64,000 nucleotides of DNA. Origin: an uncultured Dehalococcoidia bacterium. GTDB taxonomy: Bacteria > Chloroflexota > Dehalococcoidia > Lucifugimonadales > UBA3495. The notes below the pieces were generated by a model that did no database searches, had not been told where the DNA came from, and saw only the letters and a program-made list of their open reading frames with translations. The DNA lies in NCBI GenBank assembly GCA_951813535.1, contig OX638345.1, positions 11,029 through 75,028 of the forward strand, in the 5' to 3' direction. This document shows positions 27,299 through 38,728 of this stretch, one piece after another; the stretch's first letter is position 1; each line of letters begins with the position of its first letter. A program made the translations under genes and the position numbers.

Positions 27299-27724
27299 AT
27301 GCCCGAACAAGAACTGCCCCTCTTCGACTACGACGAAGTTCAGGTTGGCGAGGAGTTGGGTTCCTATGAGTACTTGCTGACGCAGGAGATGGTGGATCTG
27401 TATCGGCGGGCCGTGGACGATCCCGATGCAGTGTTCCCCACCATTGCCGTCAAGCATGACGCCACTTCGCTGGCGCTGGCCTACGACGACCAGACCGGGA
27501 GCATCAACGCCGGCAACGAGATTGATCTGTACAATCCGCCAATCCCCGGCAAGAAGATCCGCGTCACCGGCCGGATCCACAACAAGTACGTCCGCCGCGA
27601 GAAGCCCTATCTGGTCATCGAGGCCACGGCTACCGACGAGGATGGGCGGCTGATCGAGAAGATGCGCACCTACCAGATCAAGAAACCCGAGGAGTTGGGC
27701 AAGAAATGGCATCCCCAAAGCTAG
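27299..27724 (+). CDS. MaoC-like hotdog-fold dehydratase subunit
   Basis: YRRAVDD, INAGNEIDLYNPPIPGKKIRVTGRI, YLVIEATATDEDG. Confidence 0.78.
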   Translation: MPEQELPLFDYDEVQVGEELGSYEYLLTQEMVDLYRRAVDDPDAVFPTIAVKHDATSLALAYDDQTGSINAGNEIDLYNPPIPGKKIRVTGRIHNKYVRREKPYLVIEATATDEDGRLIEKMRTYQIKKPEELGKKWHPQS

Positions 27725-28128
27725 ACAGCGAAACCCTCCCCGTCGTCACCAAGCACATCACCCAGGACGTCATCAACCAGTTCGAGGCCTGCGGAATCCT
27801 CAATCGGTCCAACATCCACAACGATCCGGAGTTGGCCTCAAAACGGCTCGGCACCACCTACGCCATCGCCTCCGGCCGCATGAGCATCGCCTTCTGCACC
27901 GAGGCCATGCGCAAGTTCATCGGCTCCGATGACTTCCACCGTTCCGGCAACGTCAACCTCAAGTTCCTGCGCCCGGTGAAGCACGGCGACACCGTCAGCG
28001 TCCACGGGCAGGTCAACAGCCGCGAGCCGCAGGACGACGGTTCCACGCTGGTCACCGTCGACGTCTACTGCGAGAACCAGAACGGCGACAAGACCGCCGT
28101 CGGCCAGGCCAGCGCCCGCGTCAAATGA
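27706..28128 (+). CDS. MaoC-like hotdog-fold dehydratase subunit
   Basis: NIHNDPELA...IASG hydratase motif, LKFLRPVKHGDTV, CENQNG. Confidence 0.82.
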   Translation: MASPKLDSETLPVVTKHITQDVINQFEACGILNRSNIHNDPELASKRLGTTYAIASGRMSIAFCTEAMRKFIGSDDFHRSGNVNLKFLRPVKHGDTVSVHGQVNSREPQDDGSTLVTVDVYCENQNGDKTAVGQASARVK

Positions 28129-28188
28129 GCTCGTCGCCGGCAGCCGGCCACCAAGTCCAGCAAACATCCATAATCTGGAGCAATTCCC

Positions 28189-28506
28189 ATGACAATGACC
28201 AGGTCCGATTTCGGCAAGGTTGAAGTCGACATCGTCTACTGCGTGCCTTGAGGGTACCACGGCCTCGCCACGTGGCTGGCGACCGAGTTCTGGCGCTCCC
28301 AAAACGCCGGCGATATCGCGATCAAGCTCACCCCCGCCGATAAAGGGCGCCTCGAGATCTACCTTGACGGCGACAAGATCTTTGACCGCTTCGACGAAGA
28401 TGGCGACGAGTACCCGGGCTACACCAAGGTCAACGAGCTCAAGATGGTCATCGCCGAGCGCGTCTTCGACGTTGAAGACGAAATCGCCGCCGCGAGGAAC
28501 GCTTAG
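28189..28506 (+). CDS. SelW/SelT/SelH (Rdx) family selenoprotein with in-frame UGA (CxxU)
   Basis: GGAG RBS; MTMTRSDFGKVEVDIVYCVP-TGA(28249-51)-GYHGLATWLATEF...GRLEIYLDGDKIFDR...TAG abutting the next ATG; absent from the ORF track. Confidence 0.88.
28261..28284 (+). promoter_or_regulatory. Candidate bacterial SECIS hairpin
   Basis: TCGCCA(28265-70)-CGTGGC-TGGCGA(28277-82); G-containing loop begins 19 nt after the UGA. Confidence 0.6.
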
Positions 28507-29208
28507 ATGGCCAATCCTGACCATGTAGCGGCCGTCGCCGCCGGCCAGGCTGCCCTCGGGGCATGGCGTTCCGCCAATCCCGGCGAGCCTCTCGATCTGC
28601 GCGTCGCCGACCTGTCCGGACTGGACTTGGCCGGCGTGGACCTTCGTGATGCCGACCTCCGGGGCGCCTCCCTGGCAGATTCTCGCCTCACCCGGGCCAA
28701 TCTGTCCCGCTGCGATCTGCGCTCTGCCGACCTGACCGGAGCCGACCTCTACGGCGCGACCCTGGCCTCGGCGCAGATGGCCACCACCATCCTGCGGAAC
28801 ACCAACCTGTTCTGGGCCGACCTCAAGCAGTCCAACATGCAGGAGGCCATCCTGCAGTGGTCCCGCCTCAACCGGGCTTCGTTCCTCAACACCGACCTGA
28901 CCGACGCCGATTGCAGCCAGGTCACCGGCATAGAGGTCGATCTGCGTTCCGCCAACCTGACCAACTCCAACTGGCAGGGCGCCAATCTGAACGGGGCCGA
29001 CGTGAGCCGGGCCATCATGCACGGCGCCGACTTCACCGCCGCCAAGATCCGCGACTCCATGTGGATAATGACCGATATGCGGGGAGCGAACTTCAACCGG
29101 GCCAGCCTGCATCGCTGCGACATGACCATGGGCAAGTGGGACGACACCACCAATTTCCCACCCGGCTTTGATCCCAACTTCATCGAGAACCGGGTGGATG
29201 ACTACTAG
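28507..29208 (+). CDS. Pentapeptide repeat protein
   Basis: Runs of A(D/N)LxxA-type pentapeptides; MANPDH...W N-cap and W-DDTT-FP-GFDP C-cap. Confidence 0.93.
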   Translation: MANPDHVAAVAAGQAALGAWRSANPGEPLDLRVADLSGLDLAGVDLRDADLRGASLADSRLTRANLSRCDLRSADLTGADLYGATLASAQMATTILRNTNLFWADLKQSNMQEAILQWSRLNRASFLNTDLTDADCSQVTGIEVDLRSANLTNSNWQGANLNGADVSRAIMHGADFTAAKIRDSMWIMTDMRGANFNRASLHRCDMTMGKWDDTTNFPPGFDPNFIENRVDDY

Positions 29209-29234: not shown

Positions 29235-30215
29235 ATGTCTGTCCTACTGGTAGCGTCCCACCAGCCCGGCGCCGGCAAGACCTCCGTCGCTGCCGGTATC
29301 GCCACCCTCATCGCCCGGTCGGGAGTTCGGGCCTCCGCCTGCAAACCCCTCTCGCCGGCCGGCCGCACGGACCCCGACGCCGTCTACTTCTCCCGTAGTT
29401 TCCGCGGCGGTACCGCGGTGGCGTCTGCGGAGGACGATGCCGGCCTGGATGCGGCTGCCAGCGCCGTGCGGTCGCTGACCGGCATCAGCGAGCAGGTGGT
29501 CGTCGAGGTGGCCAACCCGGCCAGTGGTTCCGGCGCGGCTTCGGCCATCGTCACCGGCCTGGCGGAGCGGCTCTCTGCTCGTGTCCTGGCGGTATTCGGT
29601 CATGAATCCGACCTGTCATCGGTAAGCGTTTCCGGCGCGGTGGCCACACTTGGACATAGGCTCGCCGGCGTGATAGTCAATCAAACGCCCCGCTACCGGG
29701 TCCAGCGCGTGGCGACCCTGCTATCCGAACTGTCCACCGCCGGCGTACCGGTGATCGGCGCGCTGCCCGAGGATCGCACCATGCTTTCCCTTAGCCTGGA
29801 CCAGTTGGAGTCCAACCTGGGCGGCCGCTGGGAACTGGAGCCGGCAGATGGCGACGCATGGATCGACCGTTTCCTCATCGGCGGGAACATCATGGACTCC
29901 GGCGCCGGTTATTTCGGGCGATACGACCACCAGGCGGTGATCACCCGCGCCGAACGGCCGGATATCCAGATGGCGTCCCTGATGCAGGACACCCGGTGCC
30001 TGGTGCTGACCGGTGGCTCACGACCCACGGAATACATCCGGGTCGAAGCGGCCAAGCGCTGTGTGCCGGTGCTCCTGGTCGAACCGGGCACTGTGGCCAC
30101 CGCCGACGCCGTCGGAGACCTGATGGGCGCTATCGTGCCTCACGCCCCGCACAAGGCCGAGCGGATGGCGGACCTGCTGGATGGGCTCGTAGACCTGGAT
30201 GCGCTGTTGTCCTGA
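29235..30215 (+). CDS. Phosphotransacetylase N-terminal-like protein (BioD-like P-loop + DRTGG domain)
   Basis: PGAGKTS, CKPL, VIVN, AVITRAERPDIQ...CLVLTGG. Confidence 0.82.
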   Translation: MSVLLVASHQPGAGKTSVAAGIATLIARSGVRASACKPLSPAGRTDPDAVYFSRSFRGGTAVASAEDDAGLDAAASAVRSLTGISEQVVVEVANPASGSGAASAIVTGLAERLSARVLAVFGHESDLSSVSVSGAVATLGHRLAGVIVNQTPRYRVQRVATLLSELSTAGVPVIGALPEDRTMLSLSLDQLESNLGGRWELEPADGDAWIDRFLIGGNIMDSGAGYFGRYDHQAVITRAERPDIQMASLMQDTRCLVLTGGSRPTEYIRVEAAKRCVPVLLVEPGTVATADAVGDLMGAIVPHAPHKAERMADLLDGLVDLDALLS

Positions 30216-33139: not shown

Positions 33140-36100
33140 CTAATGCCCCGTCTCAAAACAGAACAGGTCGGACTGGGGCGACCATTCACCCCAGTTGGCC
33201 CCCCATCGTCCGCGGACCTGGATGGCCAGGGAACCGTAGCCTGCCATGCTCACCGTGCCGTTCATCTCAAAGTAGCCGTGAGCTTCGCTTTCCCTGAAGC
33301 TGTAGTCGACCATGCCCGCGCCGTCTCTGGTGTTGATGTGGGTAGCCCATTCGTCGGCTTCCCGGTCGCCGGTGGGGCCAGACCAGATGACCAGGAAGTG
33401 CAGGTCGCCGTCGCAGGACTCCAGTTCCAGGAGGTTGCCGCTCCGGGCGTCGGGGTGGTCGTACTGGCCGGTGCTGTCCAGCCAGAAGACGCCGAGCGTC
33501 CCTACGTCGAAAGCCTCCACACCCGATGGGTCCGGCTCTGGCGCCTCCGGGGCCTGGGGGGTGCCCTTTCCGGATGCCCACGCGCCAGTGCCCACCCGGT
33601 TCACCGCCGCCACCTGCAATTCGTAGTGCGTCCGATTGGTGAGGCCGGTGATACCGTCGCTCTCAATCAGGTCATCGTTGGAGCGGGACAGGTAGTTCCA
33701 TGATGAGCTTCCTTGCTGGCGGTAGCGGACCCGGTACGAGGTAACGGGCGCCCGCGGGTCTTCACCCGGCGGCACGTTCCAGAGCAGGAAGAGGCTTTGG
33801 TCTCCGCTCCGTACAATCAGATCGGTGGGCGCCAGCGGCACGGTGGCCGGGCCCTCCGGCGTGGCGTCGGCGGTGGCAGCCGGACCCTCCAGCGTGCCGC
33901 GCATCGCTCGCACCTCGAAGGTGTAGCCGACCCGGTTGGTCAGGTTGCTCACCGGGTGGGACGTGGTGTCCCAGCGGCTGCCGGGCATCGCCGCCCAATC
34001 GGGGTCCCACTCGGCCACGGAGCTGAGCCGGTGCCGGTACTGGTAACCCGTGATGGAGTCGTCGCCGGAGTTATTCCAGTTCAGGGTGACCCGACCGTCG
34101 CCGGGTGTGGCGGCGAAGTTCGCCGGCGCGGTCAGCGGGCCCCGCGGTTTGGCGGTGGCGCGCGCCGCCGGCCCCGGGGTGTTGCCGCGCACCGCGCGCA
34201 ACTCGATGGTGTAGAGCAGATTGTTGGTCAACCCCGAAAGCGTGCGGGCGGTTGTCGTGGCGCCGCTGCCCGACATACGCGTCCAGTCGGGGTTCCAGTC
34301 CGAGTCCGATGTGTTCATGTAGCGGTACTGGTATCCGGTCAAGGTGGCGTCGTTGGGATCGTCCCAGGTCAGCGCGATTTCACCGTCGCCGGCGGAGGTC
34401 GCGGTCAAGTTGACCGGCGCTCCCAGCGAGCCCCTTGGAATTGACTTCACCTGACCCTCTTTGCCGGGCGTGTCCACACTATTGCGACGGTACACCGGAC
34501 GCACCTGGAAGGTGTACTCCATGCCGTTGGTCAAGCCGCCAACCATGTGCTCCGTGGTATCGCCGCTACTGCCCGAGACGTCCCCCCAGTTCGGGTTCCA
34601 GTCAGTGTCCGCGCCGCTCCGTGTCCGGTATTCGTACTTTTGTATCGTGTCGTCTCCGGGATCGTCCCATTTCAGCCCCACTTGCTGGTCGCCGGGGACG
34701 GCGCGAAGGTTCCGGACGTCGGCAACGTAGTCGACATCCTGGTCGCCGAACCCGTCCGCCTCCTTTCCGCTCGGGTCTTTGATGGGGTTGGTGCTGGGCT
34801 TGCTGTAGCTCACCGTGGCCGTCTGATCCCGGGTTACCGGGGCGGCTAGGGTCAGCGTGACCACGCTGCCGGCGATCGATACCCCGGTGGGGTTGGCGCC
34901 CGCGCCGGCGTCCACCTTTACGGTGAACGCGCTGTTGGCCGGGGCGGTGGTGTTCAGATCTTCGCTGTAGTTCAGGTAGAGGCTGGAATCCTCCACCTCG
35001 GCCGACACCAGGGCGGGCTTGGTGGTATCCACCCGGTGGTCCGACAGCGCCTCCTGTGCGAGATGCTCCAAGCTGGCGGGCACCTGCCGGTCGGTCTCCG
35101 TATGCATGAACTTGATGGAGCCTCCATTCAGGTCCAGGGAGTTAACGTCCCACGAGATGCCGTCGTAATCGTCGTCGCCGGACACCACGGTGTAGGAGAA
35201 GACCAGGGACTCGGAGTCGGAGCCGTTGTCGTAGGCGGCTTCGCGGGTGGAATCACCCAGGTTGAATGTGAACTCCGGCGTCCCGTGGGTGGTATCCACC
35301 GTAACCGGGCCGGTGAACGTAACCGTGAACTCGATGTCATCCCCGACATCGTAGTATCCGTTGGTTGGCGTCGACGTCAACGCTATGCCGGATACCTGCA
35401 GGGTATCGTCGTCCAATATGGTGACCGTGATCCGACAATCGCCGTGGGGCAACAGGTGTTCGTCCGGGCAGGCCGTGAAGAAGACCGACCAGGACTCATG
35501 CTGCATATCGATGTAGAACTGTTCACTGCCCTCGTAGACGGCGTCCTCGGTCGTTTGCACGGTCAACGGTTTGTCAGCCACGTAGGCGTCGCCCGAGGAG
35601 ACAAAGTCGCTCATGTACACATAAACGATGCCAGGCAAAACCGGAACGTAATCGCCGTCCGTCGCCGTATCGGGTACGGAATCCAGCTCAACCGCATCAG
35701 AATACTTACCCCTCGGCTCCGCCACGCCCGTGCCCGTGATGAACGACACCAGCACGTCCACGCTGTCTCCCTCCTCAACGATGTACGAGTAGTGCTTGGG
35801 GGCCAACGTGTAAAGGTCTCCAGTAACGGGCATCTTCATAAACACCGTCGCCGACCGGTTCGCCCCCACCGCCGGAGCGTGGTCGTCGTGCCACGCCACA
35901 GTTGCCGTCAGGTTTCCCGATGTATGGCCAACGTAGCTGCTGCGAAGGTATTTCGTCGCCGTGGTCTGGCTTGCTGGGATGGTGATGGTCTGCGGCTGGT
36001 GCGGGAACGCATCCAGGTATTCCACGTCCTGCGCGATCTCGAGCTCCACGGTCAAGTCCGCGTCCGAGGTGTTGGATCGCGTTACCCGGAATACCGCATC

Positions 36101-38728
36101 GGATATGATGGGCGTTGCGGTAGAATACACCGCCTCGATGGAAACCCGGGGCACCGTGCTGTTGTTGGTCACCGCCTGGTCCGTGAAACCGGGCGCGTCG
36201 TTGCCGGTGGCGTCCTTGATGACCGGTCCGCTGCTGGGCTTGGCGTAGCTGACCTTGACCGAGCCGTCGTTGTGGGCGATGGGCCTGGCCATTTTGAGCA
36301 CCACCGTGCTGCCGCTCACCGAAACGCAGTCGGTGGACGCCAGATCAACCGTGGCCTCGCTGGCCCCCGCCGGCGTCGCCTCCACGGTGAAGGCCGTCGT
36401 TGGAGGCGCCGATGAATCCTTGAGCGCCTCATTGTAGGTGATGGTCAGGGTCAGACCGTCGGCGGCCAATACCGCAGTCGAGTTCGCGGCCAGAGCAGGC
36501 GGGGTCACGTCCACCTTCAGGTTGCCCACGTCCTGATCTTCAAACGTGGCCGTCTCGTTGCCGAACTTGTCGGCAATCTTGTTGTCGGTGCCCGAGTCCG
36601 GCCTGGTGTAGGTCACTTTCACATTGCTGTCGGCCGACGTGACCGAGGACGCGGTGTCCAGGGTCAGCGTCACGCTGTTGCCGGAGATTGACGGGCTGCC
36701 TGTCAGCGTGAGGGTCTGCGCCGGGTCGTTTTTCTTCACCGTGAACGCGCTCTGGTCCAGCGATGCTGCCTCGTCCAGCGGCTCATTGAAGTTCAGCGTC
36801 AGTGTCGTATTGTCCACCGTGGCGGAGGCCAGCGTGGGAGCCGCCGCGTCCTGGCTCAGGTACAACGTGCGCTCGGCATGGCCGCTCCAGTCCTGCCCGG
36901 CGCTGGTGAACAGATAGGAGGATGTTCCGCCTACGACGGAGGAATCAAAGCCGTACTCCGCCGCGTCGCAAACGTGCAGCACCAGGTTCTTCTTGTCCGC
37001 TGCGGCGAGCGCAGCTTCGAGCTGGAAGGCCACAGTGTCGTTGGACGTCGTCAGGGCGTTGATCTCGTGGTCGGCGTCGCTGGCCGTGGTGAATGTGACA
37101 TCGTCCAGGCCGCCGTTGCCCCCGCTTTCCCGGAAACCGTAGAAGGTGTCCTGGGATACGGTCCACTTCTCGACCGCAACCTTGCCGGTCCACACCTGCG
37201 ATGCTCCGCCGGTGTAGGCAGGCGCGGCACACTCGGCGGCGGCGGTGATGACCTCGGTGGCCGCGCTGGTCAGGGGGCCGTTGGCGTATCCGTCGTCGTC
37301 GGTGTAGCTGACCAGCACCTTGATGGTCTTGCCCGCGTCGTCGTCCGTCAACCGGTAGTTGGCGGCGGTGCCGATGTAGTCCGCTTCCATGGTGGTCCCG
37401 GCCGAGTCGAACCGTTGCCAGCGATAGGCGAGGTTGATGAGTTCGCCATCGTCGTCGGTGTCGTAAATCCCGTCCACGCCGTTGGTGTCCGTGATGCTGG
37501 AGAGGTCGGCCGTCAACACCGCCGGCACGCGGAACACATTGGGCGCGTTGATCACTGGCGCGCCTTTAGGCGCCGAGTTCCTGGGAGCAGCCCGCACCTT
37601 GATTTTCAGGGATCGATTCCCGGACTCGTCGGCGAACGCTCCTTCGCTGCTGGCGGCGCGGGTCTGCGCCGTATTGCCGATGGATGCTCCGTCCAACGGC
37701 GTGCCGTCCTCGTCGTCGGTGCCGGCGAACTGCACGGAAACGCCAGCCGAGCCGTTATCAACCCTCAACCAGTACTCGGTGGACCCGGCAAGCACCGCGG
37801 TTGACGAGGTCGCCCGGTATATGTAGTCCCTGGTTGCGTCGGCGGTGAGGGAGTCCGGGACGAAGGTGTCGACCACCCCGACGCCGGTCGCGGACCCACT
37901 ATGCACCGTCAGCCGGGGAGACGAGGGGGCGTTGGGCCCGGTCTGGAGGCGAATTTCGATGGTGCCCACCGTGTAGCCAGCGTCATTGTCGCCCGTGGTG
38001 AACGACTGGGCGAAATCGTAGGATGCCAGGGAACCGGTGTCCGTCCCAGATTGCGCGATGTTGCTTACCATCACCGGGACCGAATTAATGGAGCCCCGGA
38101 CCTTTATCATCAACGCCGGTCCCGTGGTGTCGTACTGGAAACTGCCGGTGCTATCGTGCCCGCGCCTGTGGAACCGGTTGCCGATGGACCAGTCCGGCGC
38201 CGGGTCGGCGTCTTCGGTGTCGACAAGGGTGCCCCGCACCAACACATTGGATACGCCCTCAACTACCACCCAGTACTTCGTGGCCGGTTCCAGGTGGAAG
38301 CCCGCCGGGGTCGTGAACGTGTAGTCCCTGGCAAAGCCGGTCCGGAGACTGCCCGGGCCGGTCAGTGTCGCTCCCGACGAATGGTTGGGGTTGTACCTGA
38401 CCACCCTCACCGAAGGGACGGTCGTTGCCCCCAACGTCTGCAGCTTGAGATCAACGCTGTTGAGCGTGTAACCGGTGGGGTTGTTCCCGGTGGTGAATTC
38501 CTGGGCGACGTCCAGGGCCCCCAGGTCCTGTCCGAATTGGTTGGACCTCCCGATGTTGCTGACCAACGTCTGCGGCGACTGCGCCTGGGTCGTGCCCAGG
38601 AGGCTGAACAGGAGCAGGGCCAGCACGGCCGGGGCAAGCAGCCAGCGGGTCAAGGCGCGCGTCGTCGCTGCGCCGCCCGGCCGGTGGGGCCGGAATATGC
38701 AGCGAATTGAGGTGGGCAGAACTGACAT
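33140..38728 (-). CDS. Giant secreted adhesin-like protein (choice-of-anchor-R-like x2, SwmB-like x3, Calx-beta-like, fibronectin type III x4)
   Basis: Signal peptide ...LLFSLLGTTQA; AQEFTTG/AQSFTTG repeats; PTLASATVD..LTL.FNE.L repeats; WDDP...YQYR...GLTN...Y...VRA FN3 repeats. Confidence 0.88.
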   Translation of the reverse strand: MSVLPTSIRCIFRPHRPGGAATTRALTRWLLAPAVLALLLFSLLGTTQAQSPQTLVSNIGRSNQFGQDLGALDVAQEFTTGNNPTGYTLNSVDLKLQTLGATTVPSVRVVRYNPNHSSGATLTGPGSLRTGFARDYTFTTPAGFHLEPATKYWVVVEGVSNVLVRGTLVDTEDADPAPDWSIGNRFHRRGHDSTGSFQYDTTGPALMIKVRGSINSVPVMVSNIAQSGTDTGSLASYDFAQSFTTGDNDAGYTVGTIEIRLQTGPNAPSSPRLTVHSGSATGVGVVDTFVPDSLTADATRDYIYRATSSTAVLAGSTEYWLRVDNGSAGVSVQFAGTDDEDGTPLDGASIGNTAQTRAASSEGAFADESGNRSLKIKVRAAPRNSAPKGAPVINAPNVFRVPAVLTADLSSITDTNGVDGIYDTDDDGELINLAYRWQRFDSAGTTMEADYIGTAANYRLTDDDAGKTIKVLVSYTDDDGYANGPLTSAATEVITAAAECAAPAYTGGASQVWTGKVAVEKWTVSQDTFYGFRESGGNGGLDDVTFTTASDADHEINALTTSNDTVAFQLEAALAAADKKNLVLHVCDAAEYGFDSSVVGGTSSYLFTSAGQDWSGHAERTLYLSQDAAAPTLASATVDNTTLTLNFNEPLDEAASLDQSAFTVKKNDPAQTLTLTGSPSISGNSVTLTLDTASSVTSADSNVKVTYTRPDSGTDNKIADKFGNETATFEDQDVGNLKVDVTPPALAANSTAVLAADGLTLTITYNEALKDSSAPPTTAFTVEATPAGASEATVDLASTDCVSVSGSTVVLKMARPIAHNDGSVKVSYAKPSSGPVIKDATGNDAPGFTDQAVTNNSTVPRVSIEAVYSTATPIISDAVFRVTRSNTSDADLTVELEIAQDVEYLDAFPHQPQTITIPASQTTATKYLRSSYVGHTSGNLTATVAWHDDHAPAVGANRSATVFMKMPVTGDLYTLAPKHYSYIVEEGDSVDVLVSFITGTGVAEPRGKYSDAVELDSVPDTATDGDYVPVLPGIVYVYMSDFVSSGDAYVADKPLTVQTTEDAVYEGSEQFYIDMQHESWSVFFTACPDEHLLPHGDCRITVTILDDDTLQVSGIALTSTPTNGYYDVGDDIEFTVTFTGPVTVDTTHGTPEFTFNLGDSTREAAYDNGSDSESLVFSYTVVSGDDDYDGISWDVNSLDLNGGSIKFMHTETDRQVPASLEHLAQEALSDHRVDTTKPALVSAEVEDSSLYLNYSEDLNTTAPANSAFTVKVDAGAGANPTGVSIAGSVVTLTLAAPVTRDQTATVSYSKPSTNPIKDPSGKEADGFGDQDVDYVADVRNLRAVPGDQQVGLKWDDPGDDTIQKYEYRTRSGADTDWNPNWGDVSGSSGDTTEHMVGGLTNGMEYTFQVRPVYRRNSVDTPGKEGQVKSIPRGSLGAPVNLTATSAGDGEIALTWDDPNDATLTGYQYRYMNTSDSDWNPDWTRMSGSGATTTARTLSGLTNNLLYTIELRAVRGNTPGPAARATAKPRGPLTAPANFAATPGDGRVTLNWNNSGDDSITGYQYRHRLSSVAEWDPDWAAMPGSRWDTTSHPVSNLTNRVGYTFEVRAMRGTLEGPAATADATPEGPATVPLAPTDLIVRSGDQSLFLLWNVPPGEDPRAPVTSYRVRYRQQGSSSWNYLSRSNDDLIESDGITGLTNRTHYELQVAAVNRVGTGAWASGKGTPQAPEAPEPDPSGVEAFDVGTLGVFWLDSTGQYDHPDARSGNLLELESCDGDLHFLVIWSGPTGDREADEWATHINTRDGAGMVDYSFRESEAHGYFEMNGTVSMAGYGSLAIQVRGRWGANWGEWSPQSDLFCFETGH

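Follow-up and report, generated by a model that had tools for sequence, protein, structure and literature searches.

The locus described here raises the question whether an in-frame TGA codon at positions 28249 to 28251 terminates a very short reading frame or is read as selenocysteine (Sec) within a longer gene. The window, which denotes the whole stretch of 64,000 nucleotides that was analysed, is part of a genome that is represented by a single contig of 4.38 Mb with a completeness of 99.8%. The host is an uncultured SAR202/Dehalococcoidia bacterium and probably a sponge symbiont. The original prediction, made from the nucleotide sequence alone, had postulated a hidden selenoprotein gene of the Rdx/SelW type, with a ribosome binding site, the start codon ATG 28189, a frame passing through Cys-Val-Pro-TGA and 84 further codons up to a TAG abutting ATG 28507, and every one of these coordinates was confirmed (Table 1). 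With TGA translated as U, the frame starting at ATG 28189 reads MTMTRSDFGKVEVDIVYCVP up to the TGA codon and continues with GYHGLATW through 84 sense codons (28252-28503). The deduced residues of this second part include GYHGLATWLATEFW, GRLEIYLDGDKIFD and finally AARNA ahead of the TAG at positions 28504-28506, which is directly followed by the start codon of the downstream gene. The orthologues carry unrelated sequences 5' of the first Met and their conservation starts at M-T/P/A-M-T-R-S, which supports the assignment of ATG 28189 as start codon. According to the sequence comparisons and the structural modelling detailed below, the product of the region 28189-28506 is very probably a selenoprotein of 105 residues that belongs to the bacterial SelW-like type of the Rdx (SelW/SelT/SelH) family.

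Table 1. Features of the predicted selenoprotein locus and of the adjacent genes; positions refer to the window.
Feature	Position	Strand	Remarks
Hot-dog protein gene	27299-27724	+	First gene of the five-gene run
MaoC-like dehydratase gene	27706-28128	+	Second gene of the five-gene run
TGA as ordinary stop codon of the upstream MaoC-like gene (27706-28128)	28126-28128	+	121 nt upstream of UGA 28249
Shine-Dalgarno-like GGAG	28177-28180	+	8 nt before ATG 28189; read from the sequence
Predicted SelW-like / Rdx-family selenoprotein gene	28189-28506	+	105 residues including Sec21, then TAG
Redox motif Cys18-Val-Pro-Sec21 (TGC GTG CCT TGA)	28240-28251	+	Situated in the b1/a1 loop
In-frame UGA, predicted to be read as selenocysteine	28249-28251	+	Conservation, dN/dS, sel genes in the genome
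SECIS-type hairpin in the coding sequence	28260-28285	+	MFE fold, conservation, one covarying pair
Pentapeptide-repeat protein gene	28507-29208	+	Pfam Pentapeptide, E=1.2e-36; ATG abuts the selenoprotein TAG
AAA_26/DRTGG (Pta-N-like) protein gene	29235-30215	+	Fifth gene of the run

Standard ORF calling closes the selenoprotein frame at position 28251, as would be the case if TGA 28249 were a true stop codon and the locus represented a pseudogene or a gene for a 20-residue peptide with an untranslated remnant downstream. The ORF list compiled with translation table 11 contained no in-frame ORF of at least 40 aa located 3' of TGA 28249, so that an ordinary gene caller would miss or mis-call the gene. 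Two overlapping ORFs of spurious appearance were observed in this region, an antisense ORF of 424 aa (27838-29112, minus strand) and an ORF of 102 aa in frame 2 (28220-28528, plus strand). The two ORFs also overlap the pentapeptide gene, and in this genome with a G+C content of 63% a gene caller might report them instead of the real gene.

The meaning of the TGA codon was deduced mainly from its conservation. In a six-frame search of 40 relatives, each of the other 24 genomes belonging to the same genus yielded an orthologue with 80-96% identity, more distant copies with 37-50% identity were present in 11 other families of the same order, and the host genome itself contains two further Rdx paralogues. 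A single TGA codon is present at the same column in all 25 genomes of the genus, in the 11 other families and in all three paralogues of the host. A wider scan of 185,579 species, each represented by one genome, returned 80 loci that are all titled as SAR202, Dehalococcoidia or Chloroflexota MAGs, several of them originating from sponge studies. The search pattern identified the gene in 79 loci, L130 being the exception, and each of the 79 orthologues carries TGA at the Sec column. Taken together, more than 100 orthologues share this TGA. Relative to the copy in the window, dN/dS ranged from 0.02 to 0.35 over the 14 codons before the UGA and from 0.03 to 0.23 over the 46 codons after it, with dS often near saturation. 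It follows from these ratios, which remain well under 1 before as well as after the UGA, that both halves of the gene are translated. A true stop codon is hardly compatible with strong purifying selection on the downstream codons at a dS reaching saturation, nor with the facts that these codons specify the b2-b3-b4-a2 part of the Rdx fold and that more than 100 genomes from several families have retained this arrangement. Termination at TGA 28249 is accordingly very improbable and has effectively been refuted already.

The same comparisons bear on the notion that TGA 28249 is an assembly or sequencing error for a Cys codon (TGC or TGT) or for TGG, for which no supporting point was found. Independent assemblies produced in many different studies share this codon. 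For three DNA-type runs and one metatranscriptome run, the listed differences included no other letter at positions 28249-28251, which is a weak comparison based on Logan contigs. TGC or TGG at this position, which had been named beforehand as an observation that would speak against Sec, was detected neither in the orthologues of the relatives nor in the 79 orthologues from the scan. The probability of such an error is therefore regarded as negligible.

Two deviating sequences and one unusually invariant codon were observed around the Sec position. The homolog P0005/L065, sharing 65% identity, contains a genuine TGT Cys codon at the UGA column, and its downstream stem is broken. In the metagenome contig L064 from NCBI (878 bp, positions 47-352), ACT AGA (Thr-Arg) replaces CCT TGA with the downstream hairpin being kept; either Sec may genuinely have been lost in this sequence, or the AGA codon may stem from an error of assembly. 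Moreover, the Pro20 codon CCT (28246-28248) shows T at its third position in 79 of 80 Pro-bearing orthologue sequences, corresponding to an entropy of 0.10 bits, whereas other fourfold degenerate sites of the gene vary freely (1.2-1.9 bits). The near-fixation of CCT suggests selection on the codon or nucleotide just upstream of the Sec codon, and the frozen CCU could mark an upstream codon-context requirement for Sec insertion in this lineage.

The protein deduced by reading through the UGA, with UGA read as Cys in the query, was assigned to its family by profile searches. In the family search that the original prediction had suggested as a check, it exceeded the curated cut-offs of both Pfam Rdx PF10262 (44.4 bits versus 22.6, E=2e-11) and the NCBIfam model TIGR02174 of the SelT/SelW/SelH family (34.9 bits versus 34.2). 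Pfam Rdx PF10262 is the former PF05169, 'Selenoprotein W-related', and TIGR02174 carries the name CXXU_selWTH. The Campylobacter-type equivalog NF041051 yielded 35.7 bits for the read-through protein, compared to a cut-off of 88, which places the protein outside that subfamily. A profile built from 15 homologues and searched against the PDB retrieved the entries 2fa8, 2oka, 2obk, 2p0g and 3dex with E-values between 1e-14 and 1e-13, and mouse SelW (2npb) with E=4e-4. The five bacterial entries are Cys-form Rdx proteins, namely Atu0228 of Agrobacterium (2fa8), two proteins of Pseudomonas (2obk and 2oka), a Vibrio protein (2p0g) and SAV_2001 of Streptomyces (3dex). In the profile alignments, Y-C-V-P-U matches the Y-C-x-x-C motif of the solved bacterial Rdx proteins. 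Together with the TGT codon in P0005/L065, the CxxC motif of the solved proteins shows the exchange of Cys and Sec that had been anticipated for this column.

An AlphaFold model computed with 20 orthologues (pLDDT 83.8, pTM 0.76) predicts the thioredoxin-like topology b1(11-18)-a1(24-36)-b2-b3-b4-a2(78-104). Cys18-Val-Pro-Sec21 is located at the b1/a1 junction of this model, right after the first beta strand, which agrees with the N-terminal thioredoxin-like position claimed for the CxxUGA motif. A Foldseek comparison of the model with the PDB placed Rdx-family proteins, including mouse SelW and MIEN1, at all of the best 23 matches, with thioredoxins following; the top matches comprised 2fa8, 2obk, 2oka and 2p0g, with TM scores of 0.79-0.85 normalised to the target, and also 2npb. 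Two alignments (A1 and A3) show no variation at Cys18 or at the Sec column. The product is most likely a thiol-dependent oxidoreductase that would alternate between the selenol/thiol and the selenenylsulfide state.

Downstream of the UGA codon, the mRNA can form a hairpin that begins after 8 nt and is present in the MFE fold. It is composed of a lower stem CGG/CCG (28260-28262 and 28283-28285), a 2-nt bulge, an upper stem TCGCCA/TGGCGA (28265-28270 and 28277-28282) and the apical loop CGUGGC (28271-28276), which holds the Trp29 codon. The TCGCCA/TGGCGA hairpin with its loop 19 nt after the UGA had been part of the original prediction and was reproduced exactly. The CGUGGC loop contains a G and thus matches the consensus of bacterial SECIS elements, in which a G is found in the apical loop (PMC1088965).

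The codons covering the hairpin are conserved at synonymous sites. Among 87 distinct orthologue sequences, the third-position entropy was 0-0.25 bits at codons +5 to +10, whereas degenerate codons in the rest of the gene showed values of roughly 0.4-1.9 bits. The frozen codons include Ala GCC (87/87), Thr ACG (59/59), Leu xxG (83/83) and Ala GCG (84/87), and the frozen stretch coincides with the hairpin. Across 72 distinct sequences, the 7-bp stem was paired in 86.9% of the cells as opposed to 20-62% when the 3' partner was slid along the sequence, with homologues in a shifted register being scored as not paired at columns 19, 20, 24 and 25 in this count. Real covariation was apparent at a single pair, formed by columns 21 and 36, both of which are third codon positions (CG in 48 sequences, UG in 10, GC in 5, UA in 4, AU and GU in one each, and 3 non-pairs); most other pairs of the stem are uninformative because they are invariant. 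In the paralogues and the other families, a hairpin likewise spans the Trp codon, but its stem register is shifted and its loop is UGGAU. One consensus hairpin for all homologues was rejected for this reason.

Folding stability was dropped as an argument for a SECIS element, since shuffled and synonymously recoded sequences fold equally well. The folding energy of the 71-nt hairpin region was no better than that of dinucleotide shuffles (z = 0.10), and in 16 of 18 homologues the 42 nt after the UGA were not more stably folded than synonymous recodings based on the host codon usage (p > 0.05). These results are explained by the sequence Ala-Thr-Trp-Leu-Ala, which in GC-rich codons folds into a hairpin almost by default, and the support for the hairpin consequently comes from conservation and not from thermodynamics. 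A search of Rfam yielded no matching bacterial SECIS family and only two chance matches with E-values of about 0.5. The aligned nucleotide sequences show that an RNA element at the SECIS position is under selection.

The claim that the organism decodes Sec was substantiated by the detection of selA (542 bits), selB (355 bits), selD (370 bits) and the tRNA-Sec gene selC (66.4 bits) in the nearly complete host genome. All four exceeded the curated cut-offs, and ARAGORN likewise identified the tRNA-Sec, with the anticodon TCA (UCA). The genes are dispersed over the chromosome at 0.71, 1.11, 2.12 and 2.35 Mb and do not form a cluster. The selD gene (G000:C1:1105770-1106690, L013) itself contains one in-frame TGA codon and probably encodes another selenoprotein. 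A genome-wide reassignment of TGA was rejected, as TGA is the commonest ordinary stop codon of the host, terminating 1123 of 2532 long ORFs with high GC3. Since TGA is not reassigned, its decoding at position 28249 must depend on the context.

These data also bear on the possibility that the UGA is read through by a near-cognate Trp or Cys tRNA or by a suppressor tRNA, which would result in a full-length protein devoid of Sec. Such a read-through might be suggested by the unexceptional thermodynamics of the hairpin and by database translations that print W at the UGA column. The few full-length database entries with C-V-P-W are P0001, P0002, P0004 and P0006. For two of them, P0001 and P0006, the DNA sequence was inspected and revealed TGA translated by table 4 instead of TGG. 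Trp at the Sec column, originally listed as a potential refutation, was rejected as such, because no Trp codon underlies these two entries. Moreover, the genome keeps a complete dedicated Sec pathway, TGA serves as its main stop codon, and the column in question is occupied by the catalytic Cys in CxxC homologues, a classic Sec/Cys pairing. Insertion of Trp or Cys should in time have favoured replacement of the UGA by the cheaper sense codon, but TGG and TGC are absent from the orthologues. Read-through of the UGA by a tRNA other than tRNA-Sec is thus considered very improbable.

The standard bacterial pathway of Sec insertion is the most likely mechanism for decoding UGA 28249. The UGA codon would escape termination during translation when the mRNA hairpin at 28260-28285 recruits the Sec-specific elongation factor SelB as the ribosome reaches this codon. 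SelB would carry the Sec-tRNA(Sec) with the anticodon UCA, made by SelA and SelD, and Sec would be inserted at position 21. In the resulting thioredoxin-like oxidoreductase, the Cys18-Sec21 pair may cycle through a selenenylsulfide.

The public records of the orthologues reflect the difficulty of annotating such a gene. A search of a collection of 5.8 billion proteins revealed that most close relatives are deposited as C-terminal fragments of 57-76 aa, which are unnamed or titled 'hypothetical protein', 'Rdx family protein' or 'predicted Rdx family selenoprotein'. The expectation that annotation would split or miss the gene was borne out by these fragments and by the ORF list of the window. 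The truncated entries and those printing W represent a systematic annotation artefact. Standard gene calling of SAR202/Dehalococcoidia MAGs either omits this gene and its two paralogues or reports them in truncated form. As public records contain fragments or translations with TGA as W, the selenoproteomes of abundant ocean and sponge bacteria are under-counted.

The predicted selenoprotein gene is the third of a run of five genes located on the same strand (Table 1), and the pentapeptide-repeat gene is likely to be co-transcribed with it. In 79 of the 80 related loci (L068-L147), the pentapeptide gene is located directly downstream on the same strand; the MaoC pair is found upstream in 54 and the DRTGG gene downstream in 57 of the 80 loci, and the same gene order was detected on an unrelated metagenome contig. 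From this arrangement it may tentatively be proposed, as a rather doubtful possibility, that the SelW-like protein and the pentapeptide-repeat protein of SAR202 act as a fixed two-protein module. This module may often reside within a larger unit that also comprises the hot-dog/MaoC dehydratase pair and the AAA_26/DRTGG protein. To our knowledge, no physiological function has been established for the Rdx family in any organism. If the module were real, the family would gain a concrete partner and possibly a pathway, namely acyl-thioester metabolism. The pairing with the pentapeptide gene is the only lead that extends beyond what is already known.

The paralogues G000:C1:3063802-3064086 (L050) and G000:C1:2585849-2586040 (L051) each contain an in-frame TGA codon, and their motifs are CVPU and CWDU. 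Neither the pentapeptide partner nor the five-gene context is present in their neighbourhoods. According to names derived from ORF reading only, one neighbourhood includes an APS-kinase-like gene and an aminotransferase gene, the other a gene for a Rex-like regulator and an Fe-S oxidoreductase-like gene. Elsewhere in the window, a minus-strand ORF of 1862 aa (33140-38728) shows many Thr/Ser/Asp-rich repeats resembling extracellular repeat domains.

Among the known systems, the solved Cys-form Rdx proteins share the fold of the predicted model, with TM scores of 0.77-0.85 normalised to the target and an rmsd of about 2 A in the Foldseek comparison. They differ from the protein described here by carrying Cys in place of the predicted Sec, and the sequence identity is 24-30%. 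Mouse SelW (2npb) likewise combines the Rdx fold with a CxxU redox motif, although its similarity is marginal at the profile level (E=4e-4). The mammalian SelW gene depends on a SECIS element of the kink-turn type in the 3'-UTR, acting with SBP2 and eEFSec, whereas the element considered here is an intra-ORF hairpin located just after the UGA and corresponds to the bacterial SelB type. An established system of the bacterial type is E. coli fdhF, in which an intra-ORF hairpin with a small G-U apical loop is situated immediately 3' of the UGA and selA, selB, selC and selD are required. The locus resembles fdhF in the position of the hairpin and in the small G-U loop, and all four sel genes are present in the host. 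It differs in the sequence of the stem, in the 6-nt loop CGUGGC and in the scattered location of the sel genes, which are not organised as one operon.

The closest counterparts are the bacterial SelW-like selenoproteins recorded in surveys of the Sargasso Sea and GOS metagenomes (PMC1088965, PMC2398784). In the Sargasso Sea, the SelW-like CxxU proteins outnumbered every other selenoprotein family, with 48 genes, and they were also detected in complete bacterial genomes (PMC1088965). In the literature searched, no description of SelW-like proteins specifically in SAR202 was found. Sponge-symbiont bins, including those of SAR202, were noted to be enriched in selA and selB (PMC5649159), and the locus described here adds to the evidence that sponge-associated SAR202 bacteria invest heavily in selenium-based redox proteins. 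Marine bacteria have been known since 2005 to possess SelW-like selenoproteins. The gene is a further member of this family and leaves the present knowledge of Sec decoding and of the Rdx family unchanged. With more than 100 orthologues, it offers a clean natural set of sequences from which a bacterial SECIS element specific to this lineage could be defined. Nothing fundamental distinguishes the predicted protein from the bacterial SelW-like selenoproteins. Both have the same domain, a size of about 90-105 aa and a CxxU motif located where b1 passes into a1. Both are specified by genes of marine bacteria in which the in-frame UGA precedes a hairpin within the coding region whose small apical loop contains a G, and Cys-form homologues exist in both cases. 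The SAR202 orthologue group differs from the catalogued proteins in the greater length of its acidic C-terminal helix (residues 78-104) and in the fixed pentapeptide-repeat neighbour downstream.
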